A DNA stretch of 31,209 nucleotides from Nitrospirota bacterium (GCA_021790695.1 JAJYGJ010000034.1:1-31209); one strand, 5' to 3'. Shown: positions 12,813 to 20,158, counted from the stretch's first letter. Notes: a model not told the origin generated them from the letters alone. Program-made: numbers and translations.

Positions 12813-14105
12813 TTAAATCCCCCCTGCGGATGCCTTCTGCCTTCTTAATTGCGCGGCCATGCTCTTGATGTCCGTGAGGTCGGTGGCCATCGCGCTCCAG
12901 CCGTACCAGAAGGCGTAGTCCGGGTTTGCATGGAAGGCCCCCTGGAAGGTGCGCATGCGGTGTTCGGAGAACATGACGAAGAGTTTTTGCTCAATGGGGG
13001 TCGGCGCGTTGTGGAAGGTGAGAAGGTCCGGATAGGCGTACGGATAATAGGAGGGTTTCTTCAGGACGCCGTCCTTGTAAAGCGCGGCAACGGTCCTTAT
13101 GGCCTCGGCCATGAGGTGGTCGGAGTCCTTTATGATTTTATCCCCCAGTGCAAGCTGCGATTTGGCGTAGGCGAGCGAGTGGCATCTGGTGCAGACCGTA
13201 AGCATCCTGTCTCTCTCGTGCTGCCAGGAGGGCGCAGTGAGCCTCACGAGATCAGCCGCCTTCACCGCAGCCAGCAGCGCGGTGGGCTTGCCCTGCGGAT
13301 CGAGCACGCCCAGGCCCTTGAGGATCGTCACCTGGTCGGCGGCCCATTGCTTGTCCCCGGGCGGGGGCAGCCGCAACCCCAGAAAGCCCCATGCGGTCCT
13401 TACCTCATGGTTTCCATTCGCCATGTGGCACTCCTGGCAGGTGGGCGCGGCGGCGTCTCTGGGCAGTATGCCCTCCCTCTTCAAGGCGTACCTAACGCCG
13501 TGCTTGGAGCCTTCATACATCTCCCACTGGGGGTGATCAAACCCCGTGTGGCATGTCCTGCAGGCCTGTGGAGACCTTGCCTCTTTCACTGAGAAGAGAT
13601 GCCGGGTGTGGCAGACGTCGCAGGAGGTGATCCCGAAGCCGGGCTGCGTCTTTTTGATTTCCATTATGTCTTGCTTGCTCTTCAAGCCGATCTGGTGGCA
13701 GCCGCCGCAGCCCTTCATCCCTTCGATCATCGCCATGGGCTGCCAGTGGATCGTCGGCATGGCCTTCATCGCCACCCAGGCGAGGGCGTGCTTGCCGCTC
13801 TTGAACTGGTCGAACTGCTTTGGATGGCAGGCCGCGCAGGTCTCGGGCGTGGGTATCTTTGCCTTCGCATAATCGGCGGCCGTTTTGTGCAGGCTTCCGT
13901 GGCAGGTCGGGCAGGCCACGCCGTTTTTGCTGTGTTTGCTCAGGCGCCAGTCGTGCACAATGCCTGGCGAGGTCTTCGAATGGCAGTCGATGCAGGCCTT
14001 TGACCCGGCCTGCGCCGCGGCGTTCTGTGCAACGAACAGACCAGACAGGAAGAGAAACGTTGAAAGGAAAGAAATACTTCGTCTCAAAAAAATACTTCGT
14101 CTCAT
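12813..14105 (-). CDS. Periplasmic octaheme c-type cytochrome, hydroxylamine oxidoreductase (HAO)-like family
   Basis: Signal peptide (..AQNAAA|Q); eight CxxCH (CIDCH, CPTCH, CAACH, CGGCH, CDVCH, CRTCH, CQECH, CTRCH); HAO-type spacing with SCDVCHTRHLFS...ACRTCHTGFDHPQWEMYEGSKHG and C-terminal HANPDYAFWYGW; AGGAGG RBS. Confidence 0.88.
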   Translation of the reverse strand: MRRSIFLRRSISFLSTFLFLSGLFVAQNAAAQAGSKACIDCHSKTSPGIVHDWRLSKHSKNGVACPTCHGSLHKTAADYAKAKIPTPETCAACHPKQFDQFKSGKHALAWVAMKAMPTIHWQPMAMIEGMKGCGGCHQIGLKSKQDIMEIKKTQPGFGITSCDVCHTRHLFSVKEARSPQACRTCHTGFDHPQWEMYEGSKHGVRYALKREGILPRDAAAPTCQECHMANGNHEVRTAWGFLGLRLPPPGDKQWAADQVTILKGLGVLDPQGKPTALLAAVKAADLVRLTAPSWQHERDRMLTVCTRCHSLAYAKSQLALGDKIIKDSDHLMAEAIRTVAALYKDGVLKKPSYYPYAYPDLLTFHNAPTPIEQKLFVMFSEHRMRTFQGAFHANPDYAFWYGWSAMATDLTDIKSMAAQLRRQKASAGGI

Positions 14106-14187
14106 GCGGCCCCTCCTTTTTTGCTTTTTGCTTTTTGACTGCGCGCGGGCGCCGCAAATCCGTGCGGGCCCCTCCTCTTATGGCCTG

Positions 14188-14230
14188 ATTTTATTGAAAC
14201 GGTCTTCGGGGCGGTATGATTTAAATCATA
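14188..14230 (-). promoter_or_regulatory. CRP/FNR-type class II promoter for the octaheme gene
   Basis: Perfect palindrome TATGAT-TTAA-ATCATA (14215-14230) centred 29.5 nt upstream of -10 TAAAAT (14188-14193, minus strand), i.e. about -41.5. Confidence 0.75.
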
Positions 14231-14314
14231 TCGCCCGGCATGCTCATAGCTATGATGTTAGCACTTCAATTTCAAATGTTAGGATTTTTAGCGGATTTTT
14301 AAACTTTTACTTTT

Positions 14315-15334
14315 TTATTTTTTAAAAACCCTCGTCAGCGAAATAAGTGCCCGGTAGCCGGCGGGCGGCGCGCCCGAGGCCCAATGGCCGGTGGCCATGG
14401 CCGCCGAAACGACCCCGAAAAAGACGGCGATTAGCAGGACGGCGTAGAGGAAGGCAGCCTTCCGCGAGAAAACGCGGTCTTTTCCCGCGTCGCCGGCCGG
14501 GAGTTTGCCGAACCCCACAGTCAGTGCGCCCGGCGCGGGACAACCGGCCACGCATGCGAGGCAGCCGTTGCACTCGGGTGTTCTTATGGCCTTCTTCTTA
14601 TCGATCGGGATTGAGGCCGGGCAGTTTTTCACGCATGCGCCGCAATGGATGCAGGCCCTCTCATCCCTCGTTATCCTTGCCGGGCTTAAAAGGCCCAAAA
14701 GCCCCAGAAGCGCCCCGTAGGGGCAGAAATACCTGCACCAGAAATTCCCGTAGAAGAGAGAGCCGATGACAAGCCCCGCCAGAACGACGGCCGCCGTGGC
14801 GCTCAGGTGCTCGAAAAACAGAAGCATCCTCGCGTCCGCGGTCGCCCAGTAAGGCCCGTTCAGAAATGCCGCCAGCGTCCAGGTGGACATCAGGAGGACC
14901 GTAAGGGCAAAAAAGGCGAGCAAGAGGTATTTTACGCTTCGCAGCCAATAATCCACGGACCTGTTCAGTTTGAAATGCCTGCCAAATATCTTCCCTCCCG
15001 TCTTCCAAAGCGCCTCCGACAGCGTCCCGACCGGACATATCCAGCCGCAAAAGCCCTTTTTGAAGAGGACCGAAACCAGCATCGCAGCGGACAGGATCAC
15101 TATCGCGGCCGGATGCACCCGGTCGAATATGCCCGTGGACAACCATAACTTTAACCCCATCAGCCCGCCGATGGGCAGAAAGCCGTCCACCGCCGCAGGC
15201 CCCGGGACCGCCGGGCCATTATTGAGGAAATGGCCCACAGACAAGTAGAGCCGCCAGCCCGCCCATAGACAAAGGAGCATTATGAACGTTTGAACGCCCC
15301 TCCTCAGTCTCGTCACCGCCGTGTTTGCCTGCAT
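14315..15334 (-). CDS. Membrane-bound 4Fe-4S polyferredoxin (NapH/MauN/YccM-like)
   Basis: Several TM helices, two CX3CP motifs (FCGWICPVG, WCRYFCPYG) and two CxxCxxCxxxCP motifs (CIHCGACVKNCP, CNGCLACVAGCP). Confidence 0.88.
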   Translation of the reverse strand: MQANTAVTRLRRGVQTFIMLLCLWAGWRLYLSVGHFLNNGPAVPGPAAVDGFLPIGGLMGLKLWLSTGIFDRVHPAAIVILSAAMLVSVLFKKGFCGWICPVGTLSEALWKTGGKIFGRHFKLNRSVDYWLRSVKYLLLAFFALTVLLMSTWTLAAFLNGPYWATADARMLLFFEHLSATAAVVLAGLVIGSLFYGNFWCRYFCPYGALLGLLGLLSPARITRDERACIHCGACVKNCPASIPIDKKKAIRTPECNGCLACVAGCPAPGALTVGFGKLPAGDAGKDRVFSRKAAFLYAVLLIAVFFGVVSAAMATGHWASGAPPAGYRALISLTRVFKK

Positions 15335-15339
15335 GCATT

Positions 15340-15382
15340 ATTTTAAACGTTCGCCCCGGGGGAAGTTATGATCCAAATCATC
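15340..15382 (-). promoter_or_regulatory. CRP/FNR-type class II promoter for the polyferredoxin gene
   Basis: TATGAT-CCAA-ATCATC (15367-15382) centred 29.5 nt from -10 TAAAAT (15340-15345, minus strand). Confidence 0.7.
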
Positions 15383-15421
15383 AATGGGCACGAAAAAGCG
15401 GCAATCCGTTTTCTCGATGTT

Positions 15422-15464
15422 TATGATATACATCATACCCATGCAGGCAATTCTCATGTAACAT
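15422..15464 (+). promoter_or_regulatory. CRP/FNR-type class II promoter for the reductase-like pair
   Basis: TATGAT-ATAC-ATCATA (15422-15437) centred 29.5 nt from -10 TAACAT (15459-15464); predicted +1 coincides with ATG 15471. Confidence 0.72.
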
Positions 15465-15470
15465 GACAAT

Positions 15471-16319
15471 ATGGATGCAAACGATGTCACTGCCGGGCGG
15501 GCAAGAGGGAGAGTCGCCCTGCGGGTCGGCTCAACGGGGCCCTATTCCTCCGAATTGACCGCGGGCCAGATAGGCGCAATCGCCGATATCGCGGAGCGGT
15601 ATGGTTCGGGCGCCGTGCACGTGACGCCGCGGCAGACAATGGAAATCCCGCATATCGATATCGCGGCGCTGCCGGATGTCACAACGCTCCTTGCGGGCCA
15701 TGGTCTTCATATCGGGTACGCCGGGCGGCGTCCGCGAAACGTGACCGCCTGTTCGCACTGGTGCCTGTATAACGTGGCGCCCATGAGGGACGCCGCCCTG
15801 CAATTGAATTGCCTTCTGAATGAAAATGAAAATGAAAAAATGCCGCTGCCCGGGAAAACCAATATCTCGCTTTCGGGCTGCGGCTTTTCCTGCGTCCGCT
15901 CCCGGACGTCGGATGTCGGCGTGATAGCGCGGTCCGAAATCGTGATCACGGACAAGAAATGCAAAAAGTGCTCCCTTTGCGTCAAGGAGCCGCTTGGATG
16001 CCAGGTGGACGCGATCACGCTGGCCGAAGGAGCAGTGGTGATAGACCGGCAAAAGTGCGTCCGGTGCGGCTTTTGTTCCGGTGTCTGCCGCCCCGGCTCG
16101 ATAATGATGAAATCGAAGAGCTTTGATGTATTTATAGGCGGAAACGGCGGGCTGAAACCGCGCGAGGCGTTTTTATATCGGACGGTTCCCTCCTTGCGTG
16201 AGGCGATGGAATTGATCGGCTCGCTCCTGGAGGGCTACCGGGCCCACGCGCGGGAAGGCGAGCGCATCGGCGATCTGATCGAAAGGGCCGGGATGGAGTG
16301 GCCGGGGCAAAAAACCTGA
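15471..16319 (+). CDS. Sulfite/nitrite reductase-like protein (NIR_SIR-ferr + NIR_SIR + inserted 2[4Fe-4S] ferredoxin; AsrC/Dsr-LP type), subunit 1
   Basis: LTAGQIGAIADIAERYGSGAVHVTPRQ, RNVTACSHWC, SLSGCGFSC, ferredoxin CKKCSLC...C and CVRCGFCSGVC, FIGGNGG, GERIGDLIER. Confidence 0.85.
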   Translation: MDANDVTAGRARGRVALRVGSTGPYSSELTAGQIGAIADIAERYGSGAVHVTPRQTMEIPHIDIAALPDVTTLLAGHGLHIGYAGRRPRNVTACSHWCLYNVAPMRDAALQLNCLLNENENEKMPLPGKTNISLSGCGFSCVRSRTSDVGVIARSEIVITDKKCKKCSLCVKEPLGCQVDAITLAEGAVVIDRQKCVRCGFCSGVCRPGSIMMKSKSFDVFIGGNGGLKPREAFLYRTVPSLREAMELIGSLLEGYRAHAREGERIGDLIERAGMEWPGQKT

Positions 16320-16320
16320 T

Positions 16321-17214
16321 ATGGAAGAGTCCCGCGAGAAATTCACCCTTGAGACGCCGCAGGTCGGGATCATCAGGGGCGTTGCCGCCAGGGACATCGA
16401 GGTCGTGGGGGGCAAGTCCGTCAACCTGAGGGCATCCGCGCGGCCGTACAGGAATGTTTATACCGCGGCCCAGCTTCGGGCCATAAAGTCCGTTGTCGAA
16501 AAATACGGCTCCGGCAAGGTCCACCTGACCCCAAGGCACAATCTTGAGATCCCCGAGGTCGGCCAAAAGAATATAGACAGGGCGCTCAAAGAGCTGTACG
16601 GCGCCGGGCTTTTCCCCGGCGGGGCCGGCTCGTCCGTCAGAAATATTTTTACCTGTCCGGACTGGTGCTCGAAGGCCGTCAGGCCGGTCCAGGAAATAGG
16701 CACCATGGTAAGCAGGAACTTTGGCGACATGGACATGCCCAATAAGGTGACGATATCCTTTGCCGGGTGCTCAAACGCGTGCTCGAGGCCGCAAAACTCG
16801 GATATCGGCATCATCGCCGTGGGAAAAGTGGCGGCCAGCGAGGAGGGATGTCCTGAAGACTGCGCTTCCTGCCTGAGCGTGTGCAGGTTCGGGGCCATTC
16901 GGAAGCTCGACGGGCGCATTATGCTGAATGAAAAATGCGTGGACTGCTGCAAATGCGCCCAGGCTTGCGCACATGGCGGGCTCGGCATTGCCGGGACCGG
17001 CTTCAGGGTCCTTATCGGCGGCAAAGAGGGGACTTCCGTCCGGTTCGGGGTCAAATACGCGGATTTCGTGGAGGATGATTTCGAGATTCTGGAAATAGTG
17101 GACAGGGTGCTGAACTGCTATAGGGAAAAGGCGCGCCTGCGGGACGGAAGCACCCGGAAAAAGGAACGCCTCGCGGAGGTAATGGGCAGGTTGGGCATCG
17201 CGGCCTTCATGTAA
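16321..17214 (+). CDS. Sulfite/nitrite reductase-like protein (same architecture), subunit 2
   Basis: YTAAQLRAIKSVVEKYGSGKVHLTPRHN, RNIFTCPDWC, SFAGCSNAC, ferredoxin CPEDCASCLSVC and CVDCCKCAQAC, LIGGKEG, KERLAEVMGRLG. Starts 1 nt after the previous stop. Confidence 0.85.
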   Translation: MEESREKFTLETPQVGIIRGVAARDIEVVGGKSVNLRASARPYRNVYTAAQLRAIKSVVEKYGSGKVHLTPRHNLEIPEVGQKNIDRALKELYGAGLFPGGAGSSVRNIFTCPDWCSKAVRPVQEIGTMVSRNFGDMDMPNKVTISFAGCSNACSRPQNSDIGIIAVGKVAASEEGCPEDCASCLSVCRFGAIRKLDGRIMLNEKCVDCCKCAQACAHGGLGIAGTGFRVLIGGKEGTSVRFGVKYADFVEDDFEILEIVDRVLNCYREKARLRDGSTRKKERLAEVMGRLGIAAFM

Positions 17215-17245
17215 TGGGCTTTTTTTAAAACCCGCAAATTGGAAA

Positions 17246-17277
17246 TTTTTTGCCCGCGGCTCAAGCCGCGGGCTTTT
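17246..17277. terminator. Stem-loop terminator between convergent genes
   Basis: gcccgcggc-tcaa-gccgcgggc-tttt (stem 17252-17273). Confidence 0.75.
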
Positions 17278-18713
17278 CATTCCCAGTTCAGCAATCTCTG
17301 TTCCCCGGCGAGGCCCCGTATCGCGGTGACGTCCTGGCTTACTTCAAGGGCGCCCCTGTACTTTCCTTCACGGTCACGGACGGCAAAGTACCTGATGTAA
17401 AGGAACCGTCCATTCATCTGTATCCAGAAATCCGCGCTATCCCTCCGGCCGCTTCTGAATGCATCCAGTATATTCTGGACAGTCCCAACGCTCTTTACGG
17501 GATGGCAGTTCTGGACCTTCCTTCCGATGACGCCGGGGCTGCGGGGAAATATCCTGTCTTTAGTCGCCGAATAATAAACGACCTCATCGTCCTCGTTCAC
17601 GAAGGAGACGTCCACGGGAAGGTGGGTGAGTATCAGGTTGACCTGTTCCGCCGTGATCGACCCCGTATCCAGACTGAGTTTATCCGGATTAAGCGTCCCC
17701 GGTTCTCCGGCCGGTACGGTCTGCCGGGCTGACCCGGATGGCTTCCAGTCCTCCACCGCCTCCAGCCACGCGTATCCTATCTCCTCCTCGCCTTTTTTCA
17801 CTCTGAGCCAGTCTTCATCGGTCAGTGTCTCAAGGGCCATGGGGAAGAGGATATTTTCCTCCTTGTAGATCATGTCATTTATCATCGTAAAGAGCGTCTT
17901 TAGCTCCAGATCGCTCAGCCTGTCCATCTTCGATTTCCCCGAAAGGTGTTTCAGCATGGCCCGGATATCGTCATGAAGGGCCCACATCACCTTCGACGGG
18001 CCGGATATCCCCTTTGCCTCCAGGACGGGAAAGAGCTGGTTTTCCTTTCTTGCATAATGCCTCTCGATGGGGGCAAGCCTGTCAAGGAGTTTTGGCAGGC
18101 CCGAGGGGTCCTTGAGATTGTCCATCTCCCGCATGATCTTCTCCGCGGCCCTGTTTTCAAGCATGAAGGTGTGCACGGGGTGTCCGGCCGGCAGGCCCGG
18201 CGGCGGCGTCTTTTTATCGAGCGATTCCCTGAACACCTCGACATGCACATTGCAAAGCCCTTTTACCTCTTGCTCCGGCATCCCCTCGGATATGAGAGAC
18301 TGCTCCATTTGGGCTATCTCGTAAGGCGAGACCTCTTTCAGAAGATCAAGCAGGCGTTTTTTGAGCAGGTCCGGCGGGACGCCTTTATGCAGGTCCTTTA
18401 TGATGCCTTTCAATATCTCCTGGCGGCCCTCCTGAGGTGGCTGGCCGCCCTCCCGGTTCTCCCGGCCGCATTCAGCGCAGACACCCTGGCAGGTCTGTTT
18501 TTTAATTTCAGCGGCGATCCGGTCTATCAGGTCCGCCGGGTCCATGCCGCCAATGGCGGCGGCCTGCTCAAGTGTTGCGACCCGTCCAATAGTGTTTTTG
18601 AGCACGGGGTTGTCCAGGGCCTTGAAACCGGGGTTTAATTCCATTAGGAATCCCTTCAGAAACGGATAAGCGTCAAGAAGTTCGGATATCTTCGTCTTTG
18701 AGTTCAGGTCCAT
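17277..18713 (-). CDS. DUF1858/DUF438 domain protein with hemerythrin-like and PAS domains
   Basis: N-terminal YPFLKGFLMELNPGFKAL..ATLEQAA (DUF1858-like), EIAQMEQSLISEG..LCNVH (DUF438), GHPVHTFMLEN / HYARKENQLFP / VMWALHDDIR / MIYKEENILFP (hemerythrin-like), LPVDVSFVNEDDEVVYYS..RSPGVIGRKVQNCHP (PAS). Confidence 0.88.
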   Translation of the reverse strand: MDLNSKTKISELLDAYPFLKGFLMELNPGFKALDNPVLKNTIGRVATLEQAAAIGGMDPADLIDRIAAEIKKQTCQGVCAECGRENREGGQPPQEGRQEILKGIIKDLHKGVPPDLLKKRLLDLLKEVSPYEIAQMEQSLISEGMPEQEVKGLCNVHVEVFRESLDKKTPPPGLPAGHPVHTFMLENRAAEKIMREMDNLKDPSGLPKLLDRLAPIERHYARKENQLFPVLEAKGISGPSKVMWALHDDIRAMLKHLSGKSKMDRLSDLELKTLFTMINDMIYKEENILFPMALETLTDEDWLRVKKGEEEIGYAWLEAVEDWKPSGSARQTVPAGEPGTLNPDKLSLDTGSITAEQVNLILTHLPVDVSFVNEDDEVVYYSATKDRIFPRSPGVIGRKVQNCHPVKSVGTVQNILDAFRSGRRDSADFWIQMNGRFLYIRYFAVRDREGKYRGALEVSQDVTAIRGLAGEQRLLNWE

Positions 18714-18766
18714 ATTGCCTCCCGGGGAATCGTTTTTTTTATTTTTATTTTCAATCTACAATTCTG

Positions 18767-18810
18767 ATTATACGGGGTGAGGAGGGCGGGGTTGTATGAT
18801 TTAGATCAGG
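18767..18810 (-). promoter_or_regulatory. CRP/FNR-type class II promoter for the DUF438 gene
   Basis: TATGAT-TTAG-ATCAGG (18795-18810, overlapping the nagA stop) centred 30.5 nt from -10 TATAAT (18767-18772, minus strand). Confidence 0.6.
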
Positions 18811-19664
18811 CCCATATACCGGAGCGCGTTGTCCTTGCCGAAGAGTTTCAAGAGCCTTTCGTCCATCTCCGGGAAGAGCCGTTTTAATGTCCGGGCGCAT
18901 TCGGAGAGCGTCTTTCCGCCGCCGGCCAGGATACCGTTTTCGTAGACGGGTTTGCCCCTGCCGCCTTTTACGGAATCCGAGACGAGGATTATCTTTTTAT
19001 GGTCCTTGATTTTAAGGACAAGCTCAAACGTTTCCAGCCCCAGGTGGACGCCGTCGGCGATGATCTCCACGCAGAGGTCCTCATCGAGGAGGGCAAAGCC
19101 CGCAAGCCCCGGCTCCCTGTGATGGAAGGGCCTCATTGCATTAAAGAGATGGGTCACGCCCGTGGCGCCGGCCCGCTTGCCCTCCCGCGCCTGCCTGGCG
19201 GTGGCGTCGGAGTGGCCCATGTTCACCCTGATGCCGAGCCCCGCGCACCTCTCTATGACTTTAAGCGCGCCCGGCAGCTCGGGCGCGACGGTGATTATCT
19301 TTACGGCGTCCTCGAACCCGGCTATCAACTCTTTAAGGTTTGAAAGCGTCGGCCTCCGGAAATTCCCCGCCCCGAGCGCCCCGCATCTGCCGGGGTTCAG
19401 AAACGGCCCTTCCAGGTTTATGCCGCCAATGAGTCCGCTTTTCGCCATCGCCTCCCGCACCGCGGACATCCCGGCGCGCATGCCGGCCGCCTCCGAGGGA
19501 TAGATGGTGGGATATATGAGGGCCGTGCCTTTTTTCCGGTGGGAGCGGGCCAGCTCCAGTATCGTCCGTGGGTCCGCGTCTCTCGTGTCATAGGGGCCCA
19601 GGCCGTGGGTGTGCAGATCGACAAAATCAAAATCAAAATCAAAAAGGCCTTCAGGGACCGTCAT
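18801..19664 (-). CDS. nagA: N-acetylglucosamine-6-phosphate deacetylase-like amidohydrolase (compact, 287 aa)
   Basis: DLHTHG, INLEGPF, ITVAPE, MGHSDA, THLFNAM, IIADGVH, LVSDS. Confidence 0.8.
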   Translation of the reverse strand: MTVPEGLFDFDFDFVDLHTHGLGPYDTRDADPRTILELARSHRKKGTALIYPTIYPSEAAGMRAGMSAVREAMAKSGLIGGINLEGPFLNPGRCGALGAGNFRRPTLSNLKELIAGFEDAVKIITVAPELPGALKVIERCAGLGIRVNMGHSDATARQAREGKRAGATGVTHLFNAMRPFHHREPGLAGFALLDEDLCVEIIADGVHLGLETFELVLKIKDHKKIILVSDSVKGGRGKPVYENGILAGGGKTLSECARTLKRLFPEMDERLLKLFGKDNALRYMGLI

Positions 19665-20158
19665 GAGGACTTGCGCGAGGCGGCCCCGCCGGAAAAGGGG
19701 GGATTTTTTTCTATCTTCTTCAATCGCTCCGGGGTCAGGGCGGAAACGATCCTGAAACCCGGACTGGCGTAGCGGTCCGCCCTTTTCATCAGGAGCCAGT
19801 CGTTTGGCGATTTGCCCTTTTTGATTTTGAACCTGGCCAGAACGAACCCGCCCTTGAGCTTCCGGCCCGCGAGCGTGAATTCGATGATCCCCTCGCCGGG
19901 GCCGCCTTTTTCAAGATCGAACCGGCCGCTGTCCCAGATTACGACCGTTCCCGCTCCATACCGGCCCGCGGGGATGATGCCCTCCCAGGAGCCGTATTCG
20001 AGATCGTGGTCTTCCACCATGACGGCAAGCCTTTTGTCGGCCGGGTCCATCGAGGGCCCCTTGGGGACGGCCCAGCTCTTGAGGACCCCCTCTATCTCGA
20101 GCCTGAAGTCATAATGAAGACGGGTTGCGTGATGTTCGTGCACTACGAACAGGGCCAT
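19661..20158 (-). CDS. Stand-alone LigD 3'-phosphoesterase (DNA polymerase/ligase N-terminal domain) protein
   Basis: FVVHEHHATRLHYDFRLE, LKSWAVPKGPS, DKRLAVMVEDH, YGAGTVVIWDSG. Confidence 0.92.
   Translation of the reverse strand: MALFVVHEHHATRLHYDFRLEIEGVLKSWAVPKGPSMDPADKRLAVMVEDHDLEYGSWEGIIPAGRYGAGTVVIWDSGRFDLEKGGPGEGIIEFTLAGRKLKGGFVLARFKIKKGKSPNDWLLMKRADRYASPGFRIVSALTPERLKKIEKNPPFSGGAASRKSS

Follow-up and report, generated by a model that had tools for sequence, protein, structure and literature searches.

Positions 12,813 to 18,810 of a Nitrospirota contig (GCA_021790695.1, JAJYGJ010000034.1) raise the question of whether four transcription units encoding dissimilar redox proteins answer to a single regulator. 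The units encode an octahaem cytochrome c resembling hydroxylamine oxidoreductase (HAO), a NapH-like membrane polyferredoxin, a tandem pair of small sulfite/nitrite-reductase-like proteins and a DUF438-hemerythrin-PAS protein, and each is preceded by a copy of the inverted repeat TATGAT-N4-ATCATA. An initial annotation, made from the sequence alone, took these boxes for class II CRP/FNR-type operators that unite the island in one nitrite/nitric oxide (NO) regulon. The full contig of 31,209 nt, hereafter the window, is contig C58 of a sulfate-reducer-like genome assembly (G000; 2.19 Mb in 236 contigs, 82.5% complete) of DNA from a mine-drainage metagenome, and the relatives considered here are metagenome-assembled genomes (MAGs) of the Thermodesulfovibrionales (Nitrospirota). 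We put at roughly three in four the probability that the four boxes are class II operators of a CRP/FNR-family activator, that the activator is a protein encoded on contig C193, and that its signal is of the nitrite/NO type. The existence of a real, conserved operator and regulon is the part that we hold with high confidence; that the signal is NO or nitrite we favour with more reserve.

The four boxes lie where the initial annotation had placed them. Box 1 (14215-14230, TATGATTTAAATCATA) and box 3 (15422-15437, TATGATATACATCATA) are perfect copies of TATGAT-N4-ATCATA and score 30.2 and 28.9 bits, respectively, against a position weight matrix (PWM) built from 15 sites, in which the core TGAT..ATCA is invariant. 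Box 2 (15367-15382, TATGATCCAAATCATC) carries one mismatch and scores 24.9 bits, and box 4 (18795-18810, TATGATTTAGATCAGG), with two mismatches and a downstream half that reads ATCAGG, is the weakest at 19.0 bits. A -10-like hexamer facing the gene stands at a nearly constant distance from each: TAAAAT (14193-14188, minus strand) lies 21 nt from box 1, TAAAAT (15345-15340, minus) 21 nt from box 2, TAACAT (15459-15464, plus) 21 nt from box 3 and the consensus TATAAT (18772-18767, minus) 22 nt from box 4, as the spacings of 29.5, 29.5, 29.5 and 30.5 nt from box centre to hexamer had implied. If the hexamers are set at -12 to -7, the box centres come to lie at -41.5 or -42.5. The -35 position consists of the last TA of the box followed by ccgc, actt, ccca or caac; it matches TTGACA at about 2-3 of six bases at the two promoters that were read, and a promoter scan of the window returned no sigma-70 hexamer pair at any of the four, in keeping with the earlier remark that a good -35 element is missing. 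Box 1 serves the cytochrome gene, whose ATG is 117.5 nt from the box centre, and box 4 the DUF438 gene, at 89.5 nt. The NapH-like gene (box 2) and the tandem reductase genes (box 3) begin much closer to their boxes, at 40.5 nt and, for the A of the ATG, at exactly 41.5 nt. Because these two ATG codons fall only 5 and 6 nt past the -10 hexamer, both transcripts appear to be leaderless. Boxes 2 and 3 stand back-to-back with 55 bp between their centres, and the two divergent promoters are contained within 136 bp (15335-15470).

Short palindromes could in principle arise by chance in intergenic DNA, which is richer in A+T than coding DNA, or mark the ends of a repeat element without any regulatory role, and the two mismatches in box 4 would suit such an origin. 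The counts speak otherwise. With up to two mismatches allowed, five matches occur in the window where 0.29 would be expected, and none of 100 shuffles reached five; the fifth, at 2625, has two mismatches, scores below 9 bits and lies inside a coding sequence. A scan of the whole genome, as the initial annotation had proposed, places the motif well above background, with three perfect boxes against 0.07 expected in locally shuffled, composition-matched sequence and eight PWM hits of at least 17 bits against 1.4. Two of the perfect boxes are those of the island, and the third (C54:5984) lies upstream of a second HAO-like multihaem cytochrome gene (PF13447), with TAGAAT 21 nt away. The matrix separates five G000 sites, at 19-30 bits, from a near-background tail. 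Hits of 9-19 bits, which exceed the shuffles about twofold and mostly fall within open reading frames (ORFs) or lack context, were not counted as members, and a site with one mismatch at C54:1377 was treated as chance, overlapping as it does the start of a coding ORF (ATG ATC GAG ATC ATC) that is presumably secF. As far as it is assembled, the G000 regulon is essentially the island plus one more cytochrome. Across 41 Thermodesulfovibrionales genomes, perfect boxes number 72, whereas the reversed pattern used as a control is matched 3 times, and the excess remains in almost every genome when one mismatch is allowed. The sequences flanking the copies are unrelated, so the box is not a mobile repeat. 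Together with the conservation described next, these figures effectively refute an origin without function.

The expectation that the motif would be conserved in related genomes held for the reductase pair, for part of the cytochrome orthologues and for NapH-like genes, and it failed for the DUF438 gene, to which we return below. The reductase pair has the box upstream in all five other genomes that carry it, four of them MAGs with 58-78% protein identity (L016-L019) and the fifth G029 (L088), and in each the layout is the same: box, 21-22 nt, TAnnnT, 6 nt, ATG. This ATG is the sole plausible start and is itself conserved, and because the box centre lies exactly 41.5 nt from its A, the reductase transcript is predicted to lack a leader. 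Boxes likewise stand upstream of the octahaem cytochrome orthologue in six of 11 other genomes (G016, G018, G013, G025, G036 and G031), and no box was found upstream of those in G006, G038, G024, G022 and G034. NapH-like genes bear boxes at the G000 distance in G017, which has two such genes, and in L019. At the reductase and NapH-like promoters the ATG falls 5-8 nt past the -10 hexamer in every genome examined (including L016-L019, L088, L041 and L019:4452). The conserved boxes precede orthologues of 51-78% protein identity in genomes that range from 37 to 63% G+C; this pattern is the phylogenetic footprint of a real operator held at a fixed class II position.

The spacing is rigid beyond the island as well. 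Among 37 box-gene pairs, the TAnnnT hexamer lies 21 nt from the box in 20 and 22 nt in 8, for a total of 28/37, and the other offsets between 17 and 26 nt occur one to six times each. All four boxes of the window are 5-N4-5 inverted repeats around a TGA-N6-TCA core and combine a fixed distance to the -10 hexamer with a weak or absent -35, and the description of them as CRP/FNR-type operators at class II spacing thus stands. Because the box sits at -41.5, the -35 element is missing and the spacing is rigid, class II activation is the mode of action that we favour.

The same placement invites an alternative, in which the box is the operator of a repressor, either an Rrf2/NsrR-like protein or a CRP/FNR protein acting negatively, that occludes the -35 region of promoters otherwise expressed constitutively. 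The Rrf2 protein NsrR controls hmp, ytfE, hcp and ygbA, and the target classes seen here (hcp, ygbA, hemerythrin/ScdA-type) overlap with its own. Rrf2 genes exist in G000, a site spanning -49 to -34 overlaps the place where sigma region 4 binds, and the half-site ATGAT bears a superficial likeness to the ATGyAT of NsrR (PMC1274295). NsrR, however, is a repressor of a different protein family that reads ATGyAT-N5-ATrCAT, a 7-N5-7 geometry, whereas the box has a 6-N4-6 geometry, and the presence of Rrf2 proteins does not track the box, as they occur in the box-less genomes G001 and G039. There is moreover no recognisable -35 to occlude, a fixed 21-22 nt to the -10 hexamer is needed for activation from -41.5 but not for repression, and the box is physically linked to a CRP/FNR gene. 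On operator geometry and distribution we rejected Rrf2/NsrR as the regulator, and we regard repression of any kind at these sites as very improbable.

That the regulator is not encoded in the window, as first proposed, is borne out by the candidate on contig C193, one of three CRP/FNR paralogues in G000 (the others being B, on C153, and C, on C24). It occupies G000:C193:76-738 on the minus strand and comprises 220 residues from a Met codon at 738. Orthologues are present in 35 of the 40 relatives at 42-77% identity, and across 30 of them (47-77% identity) the recognition helix TTVETSIRT is almost invariant, as would be expected because the box itself is invariant across the order. The gene and the box are also neighbours: 13 of 30 genomes have a box of at least 15 bits within the 3.6-kb regulator locus, where the G000 shuffle rate predicts about 0.24, and, where ORFs were mapped, it lies upstream of a gene for a 136-aa COX1-like protein that is convergent to the regulator gene. 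Gene and box are lost together as well. Four high-quality genomes without a C193 orthologue (G001, G022, G034 and G039; 98-100% complete) have no perfect box and no mini-oxidase gene of this COX1-like type, whereas 31 of the 35 genomes with the regulator have at least one perfect box, a difference whose hypergeometric p value of about 0.0009 is overstated in that the genomes are not phylogenetically independent and the four stand for about three independent losses. In G022 and G034 the cytochrome orthologue is still there, without the box and without the regulator. On this evidence the C193 protein is the likely reader of the box. Paralogue B, with a CRP-like R-E-T-V-T-R helix, was rejected for this role since it has orthologues in the box-less G001, G022 and G034, and paralogue C was rejected since only 16 of the 40 relatives have it and many genomes rich in boxes do not.

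Two genomes of the same genus as G000 illustrate the coupling at short range. G001 (98% complete) has neither the regulator, the mini-oxidase gene, a perfect box nor an orthologue of the island cytochrome; in G002 the regulator (77% identical), the mini-oxidase gene and a single perfect box are all retained. The contrast suggests that the regulon was lost recently and completely within the genus. The mini-oxidase is a conserved four-helix membrane protein of 135-138 residues (MDRFVKNF...HSHL.LLGWVSMM..GVGYHILPRF) that matches only part of COX1 (PF00115, E 2e-10), and small COX1-like proteins of this kind are also found in Planctomycetota and in methanogens. Its gene, exemplified by L071:2163-2573 on the minus strand in G021, lies beside the regulator orthologue also in L054, L059, L063, L065, L066, L069, L076, L057, L067 and L050, with a box upstream and in convergent orientation, and it is lost with the regulator in G001, G022, G034 and G039. 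The protein could be an NO-binding partner or sensor. The G000 assembly lacks the gene, because contig C193 breaks off some 75 bp beyond the regulator's stop codon.

The C193 protein contains a single cysteine and so cannot be an oxygen sensor of the FNR type with a [4Fe-4S] cluster; among the 30 orthologues no cysteine position is conserved. Met93 is conserved in the family and His132 mostly so. The sensor domain scores as a generic cNMP-binding fold and reaches no NCBIfam equivalog model, and the protein is about equally distant from the CRP, CooA, NtcA, FNR and DNR structures (CooA 2FMY, E 7e-19; NtcA 2XGX, E 4e-15; DNR 3DKW, E 7e-13), with no chain named HcpR among the best 60 solved relatives listed (E to 4e-8). 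When half-sites are aligned on the T-G-A core, the sole difference is the discriminating base, which is G in CRP (TGTGA), T in FNR (TTGAT) and A here (TATGAT). The helix keeps the Glu and Arg with which CRP and FNR read the core, has Val at the position of CRP Arg180 and has Ser-Ile where FNR has Ile-Ser, a change that fits a box differing only at the discriminating base. Correlating helix with box in this way, a logic applied to HcpR by Rodionov et al. (PMC1274295), would make C193 the protein that reads TATGAT.

What the regulon responds to is suggested by its content in relatives, where the recurrent targets, namely hcp, nrfHA, ygbA, HPP, NOR/cbb3-like oxidase, hemerythrin/ScdA-type proteins and HAO-like cytochromes, are the classical vocabulary of nitrite and NO. 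The initial annotation had suggested looking for hcp, nor, nrf or hcpR among the targets, and the first and third turned up. G029 has a perfect box 87 nt before an hcp equivalog (823 bits) and a further box ahead of its reductase pair. In G000, hcp (hydroxylamine reductase equivalog, 663 bits; C180:2401-3729 / L106:1471-2829) is cut at a contig end, so that the promoter and some 100 residues of the N-terminus are missing. The closed genome G017 has boxes ahead of nrfH-nrfA; a small cytochrome with a YgbA_NO-family gene; a CLC channel; DUF362 with a polyferredoxin; a GATase with an HD protein; a HAD hydrolase with a chemoreceptor; and two NapH-like genes, one of which heads a cluster that also encodes a highly divergent COX1 and a cytochrome c of FixO/NorB-c-like type. 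This last is the sole nor-like target: the COX1 protein, of 453-466 residues, reaches only 27.7 bits against ccoN and matches no NorB model, and its cluster is a candidate for an unclassified NO reductase or oxidase. Its arrangement, a box followed by a NapH-like gene, a 221-aa dihaem-type cytochrome c (FixO/NorB-c-like) and COX1, is seen at L041:6799-8841 (G017) and L019:1373-4417, both on the minus strand. Perfect boxes in G031 stand ahead of an operon with CBS and HPP-family genes and ahead of a dsrAB-like pair, and small DUF1858/ScdA_N-like proteins also bear boxes. HPP proteins are nitrite transporters in cyanobacteria. Among the box targets looked at there was no nirS/K or nosZ.

Two of the G031 loci deserve a separate remark. 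The dsrA/dsrB-like pair (L086:4342-6578, minus strand; perfect box at L086:6675) scores 388.9 bits with the dsrB model, above its cut-off, and 337.8 with the dsrA model, below it, which suggests that in some lineages sulfite reductase genes of the dissimilatory type may belong to the regulon. At L083:3001-3693 (minus strand) a different CRP/FNR paralogue, with helix R-E-V-V-S-R, ends inside the perfect box that heads the operon of CBS, HPP and small multihaem cytochrome genes, and it may be a second, linked regulator.

The same operator and the same kind of activator could serve another signal: oxygen or a general redox cue, sulfite, a cyclic nucleotide, or nitrogen status, which NtcA senses through 2-oxoglutarate. 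The generic score of the sensor domain leaves room for this, and the targets in relatives include the GATase, HAD, chemoreceptor and DUF362 genes and the dsrAB-like pair, as well as, in G000 itself, asparagine synthase behind a weak box. In addition, nrf of Escherichia coli is also under FNR, and NtcA promoters share the -41.5 site and a TAN3T -10 hexamer. Against this, the lone cysteine excludes an FNR-type cluster, the box is neither the GTA-N8-TAC of NtcA nor that of FNR, and the most recurrent and best-scoring targets are genes of nitrosative stress and nitrite (hcp, nrfHA, ygbA, HPP, HAO-like and DUF1858/ScdA_N-like). We consider a different signal unlikely, if far from negligible, and continue to favour nitrite or NO.

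Several observations weigh against the assignment of the four boxes to a C193-dependent nitrite/NO activator. The closest cytochrome orthologues (G006 and G038; 65-67% identity) lack the box in genomes that do have the regulator. No perfect box occurs in four of the genomes that carry the regulator; conversely, G008 and G040, 380-contig assemblies that are 94% and 90% complete, have one or two perfect boxes and no detectable regulator orthologue, an absence that we attribute to assembly gaps. Boxes also stand ahead of genes without an obvious link to nitrogen oxides (HAD with chemoreceptor, GATase with HD, DUF362 and the G031 dsrAB-like pair), and NO or nitrite as effector is a case of guilt by association. 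A site at this position could also serve a repressor, and the sole metatranscriptome of the source study contains 0.00 of sampled sequence words from this DNA. Finally, the DUF438 box is absent upstream of all six orthologues found (59-69% identity; nothing of at least 12 bits). Because these six lack it, the membership of DUF438 in the regulon is specific to G000. The proposal of one nitrite/NO regulon is supported by the conserved boxes and by nrfHA, hcp, ygbA and HPP among relatives' targets, with this fourth unit as its weakest member. Box 4 itself probably functions despite its lack of conservation; a chance origin is unlikely because three strong boxes lie within 6 kb and a consensus TATAAT stands at 22 nt.

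The mechanism that we propose is as follows. An activator dimer bound at about -41.5 would replace the -35 element and recruit RNA polymerase to the TAnnnT -10 hexamer, and boxes 2 and 3 would in this manner drive two divergent transcripts. The dimer would be the C193 protein, reading the TATGAT box through its TTVETSIRT helix. Judging from the targets in relatives, it would respond, perhaps by way of haem or another bound cofactor, to nitrite-derived NO or to nitrosative stress. In G000 it would turn on the periplasmic octahaem cytochrome, which is probably nitrite- or hydroxylamine-reducing, together with the NapH-like membrane protein for electron input and the siroheme-type reductase of two subunits in the cytoplasm; for the hemerythrin-PAS protein this is less certain.

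Functionally the regulon is HcpR/DNR/NnrR-like, and its box matches no published box of HcpR, DNR or NnrR. The likeness to HcpR begins with a CRP/FNR factor that lacks the cysteine cluster of FNR in anaerobic hosts of the sulfate-reducing type, and it extends to a palindrome upstream of hcp (here in G029) and of other nitrite/NO genes and to a box that co-varies with the helix. HcpR regulons can also include sulfur-oxyanion genes: Desulfovibrio HcpR is predicted to control sat and aps, and here the dsrAB-like pair of G031 has a box. HcpR regulons of anaerobes are described by Rodionov et al. in 2005 (PMC1274295) and, for Desulfovibrio HcpR1 and HcpR2, in PMC5701242, and the published HcpR boxes are TGTGA-N6-TCACA, TTGAC-N4-GTCAA and GTAAC-N4-GTTAC (PMC1274295). 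TATGAT-N4-ATCATA is none of these, and the helix here is V-E-T-S-I-R. The regulon here, unlike that of HcpR, is dominated by HAO-like cytochromes, the small siroheme-type pair and the mini haem-copper-oxidase-like protein.

With DNR, NnrR and class II FNR sites the box shares the 5-N4-5 inverted repeat around TGA-N6-TCA, the placement at -41.5 and the missing -35, and with DNR and NnrR it shares NO-related targets that include a NOR/cbb3-type haem-copper oxidase; DNR can, moreover, be detected as a homologue (3DKW). The first base of the half-site, however, is A here and T in DNR (ATGAT versus TTGAT), NnrR uses TTGCG, and from the TTGAT-N4-ATCAA or TTGCG-N4-CGCAA that these factors read before nir, nor or nos the box here differs at the specificity base. 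By the evidence of its cysteines and its box, the C193 protein is not FNR, which has an N-terminal cysteine cluster plus a central Cys, a TTGAT-N4-ATCAA box and an E--SR helix, whereas the helix here is E-T-S-I-R with Ile at the FNR Ser, and many promoters here appear leaderless. Nor, by the same kind of comparison, is the regulon that of NsrR or of NtcA. The latter resembles it in its class II site at -41.5, TAN3T -10 hexamer, missing -35 and nitrite-related targets, and NtcA is a homologue (2XGX), but it reads a GTA-N8-TAC box with a different helix, and the targets here are of stress and respiration instead of assimilation. No description of the box sequence or of a CRP/FNR regulon in Thermodesulfovibrionales was found in the searchable literature, and we know of no transcription network described for the order.

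The gene identities given in the initial annotation hold. The cytochrome (12813-14105, minus strand) is a periplasmic protein of 430 residues with a signal peptide and eight CxxCH motifs that belongs to the HAO/HDH family. Its best solved relative is 6H5L (E 1.7e-29), an HAO-like protein deposited as 'similar to hydroxylamine oxidoreductase', which we take to be Kuenenia Kustc0458. Nitrite reduction is known for members of the HAO family without the tyrosine cross-link (PMC8042395). The NapH/MauN-type membrane polyferredoxin (14315-15334, minus) combines two Fer4_5 domains with a dicluster ferredoxin domain. Reductase-like proteins A (15471-16319, plus; 282 residues) and B (16321-17214, plus; 297 residues) are both NIR_SIR proteins, are encoded with a 2-nt gap between them and share about 30% identity. 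Protein A has NIR_SIR_ferr and NIR_SIR domains with an inserted ferredoxin, and its best solved relative is the C-terminal half of the F420-dependent sulfite reductase 7NP8 (E 1e-17), the part of that enzyme to which the reductase subunits come closest. A terminator-like GC hairpin followed by a T run (17252-17273, plus) closes this operon. The last unit (17277-18713, minus) encodes a DUF1858-DUF438-hemerythrin-PAS_10 protein of 478 residues, with PF0695 as a solved relative (3CAX, E 3.6e-49).

The initial annotation had further suggested that these products may form a single system spanning periplasm, membrane and cytoplasm. Comparison qualifies this picture. When the five island proteins were searched by tblastn against 16 orthologous loci, each locus yielded the gene used to seed it and no other, and in none of the other genomes examined do the island genes lie side by side. 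The island is better described as a set of independently promoted modules that share a regulator at one locus, and not demonstrably as one multi-compartment machine.

Anaerobes of the order Thermodesulfovibrionales are widespread in hot springs, aquifers, reactors and mine drainage. For this order a single recognisable box, proposed to be read by one conserved CRP/FNR factor, offers a marker of the nitrogen-oxide response that can be read from a genome. The box also lends a nitrite/NO context, and a testable one, to several protein families hitherto without a functional context: the small tandem sulfite-reductase-like pair, the short HAO-like octahaem cytochromes, the stand-alone NapH-like proteins, the DUF438-hemerythrin-PAS protein of this genome and the 136-aa COX1-like protein. 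The pairing of TATGAT with E-T-S-I-R adds a data point to the CRP/FNR recognition code, and the conserved leaderless class II promoters are well suited to the study of activation where no 5' leader is present. Speculatively, and with distinctly less confidence, the box may mark an order-wide regulon of nitrogen-oxide stress and respiration under a new CRP/FNR specificity class. Its core would consist of uncharacterised proteins in place of the textbook enzymes: the regulator with its co-inherited mini-oxidase, the latter possibly an NO-binding sensor or NO sink, a cytoplasmic Fsr-like siroheme pair acting on nitrite or hydroxylamine, and periplasmic HAO-like octahaem reductases without the cross-link, which together might provide a new nitrite/NO route in sulfate-reducing Nitrospirota of acid-mine and subsurface settings.

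Two further details of the locus concern the reductase subunits and the upstream neighbour of box 4. Siroheme sulfite and nitrite reductases have a C-x5-C first cysteine pair and a C-x3-C second pair; in the two subunits here the first pair is C-x3-C (CSHWC at 94-98 in one and CPDWC at 112-116 in the other), as is the second. Box 4 overlaps the stop codon of an ORF for a short nagA-like amidohydrolase of 287 residues, which covers only positions 58-280 of the 380-position nagA model and is preceded by a gene for a stand-alone LigD 3'-phosphoesterase domain of 165 residues (both within window positions 18801-20158).

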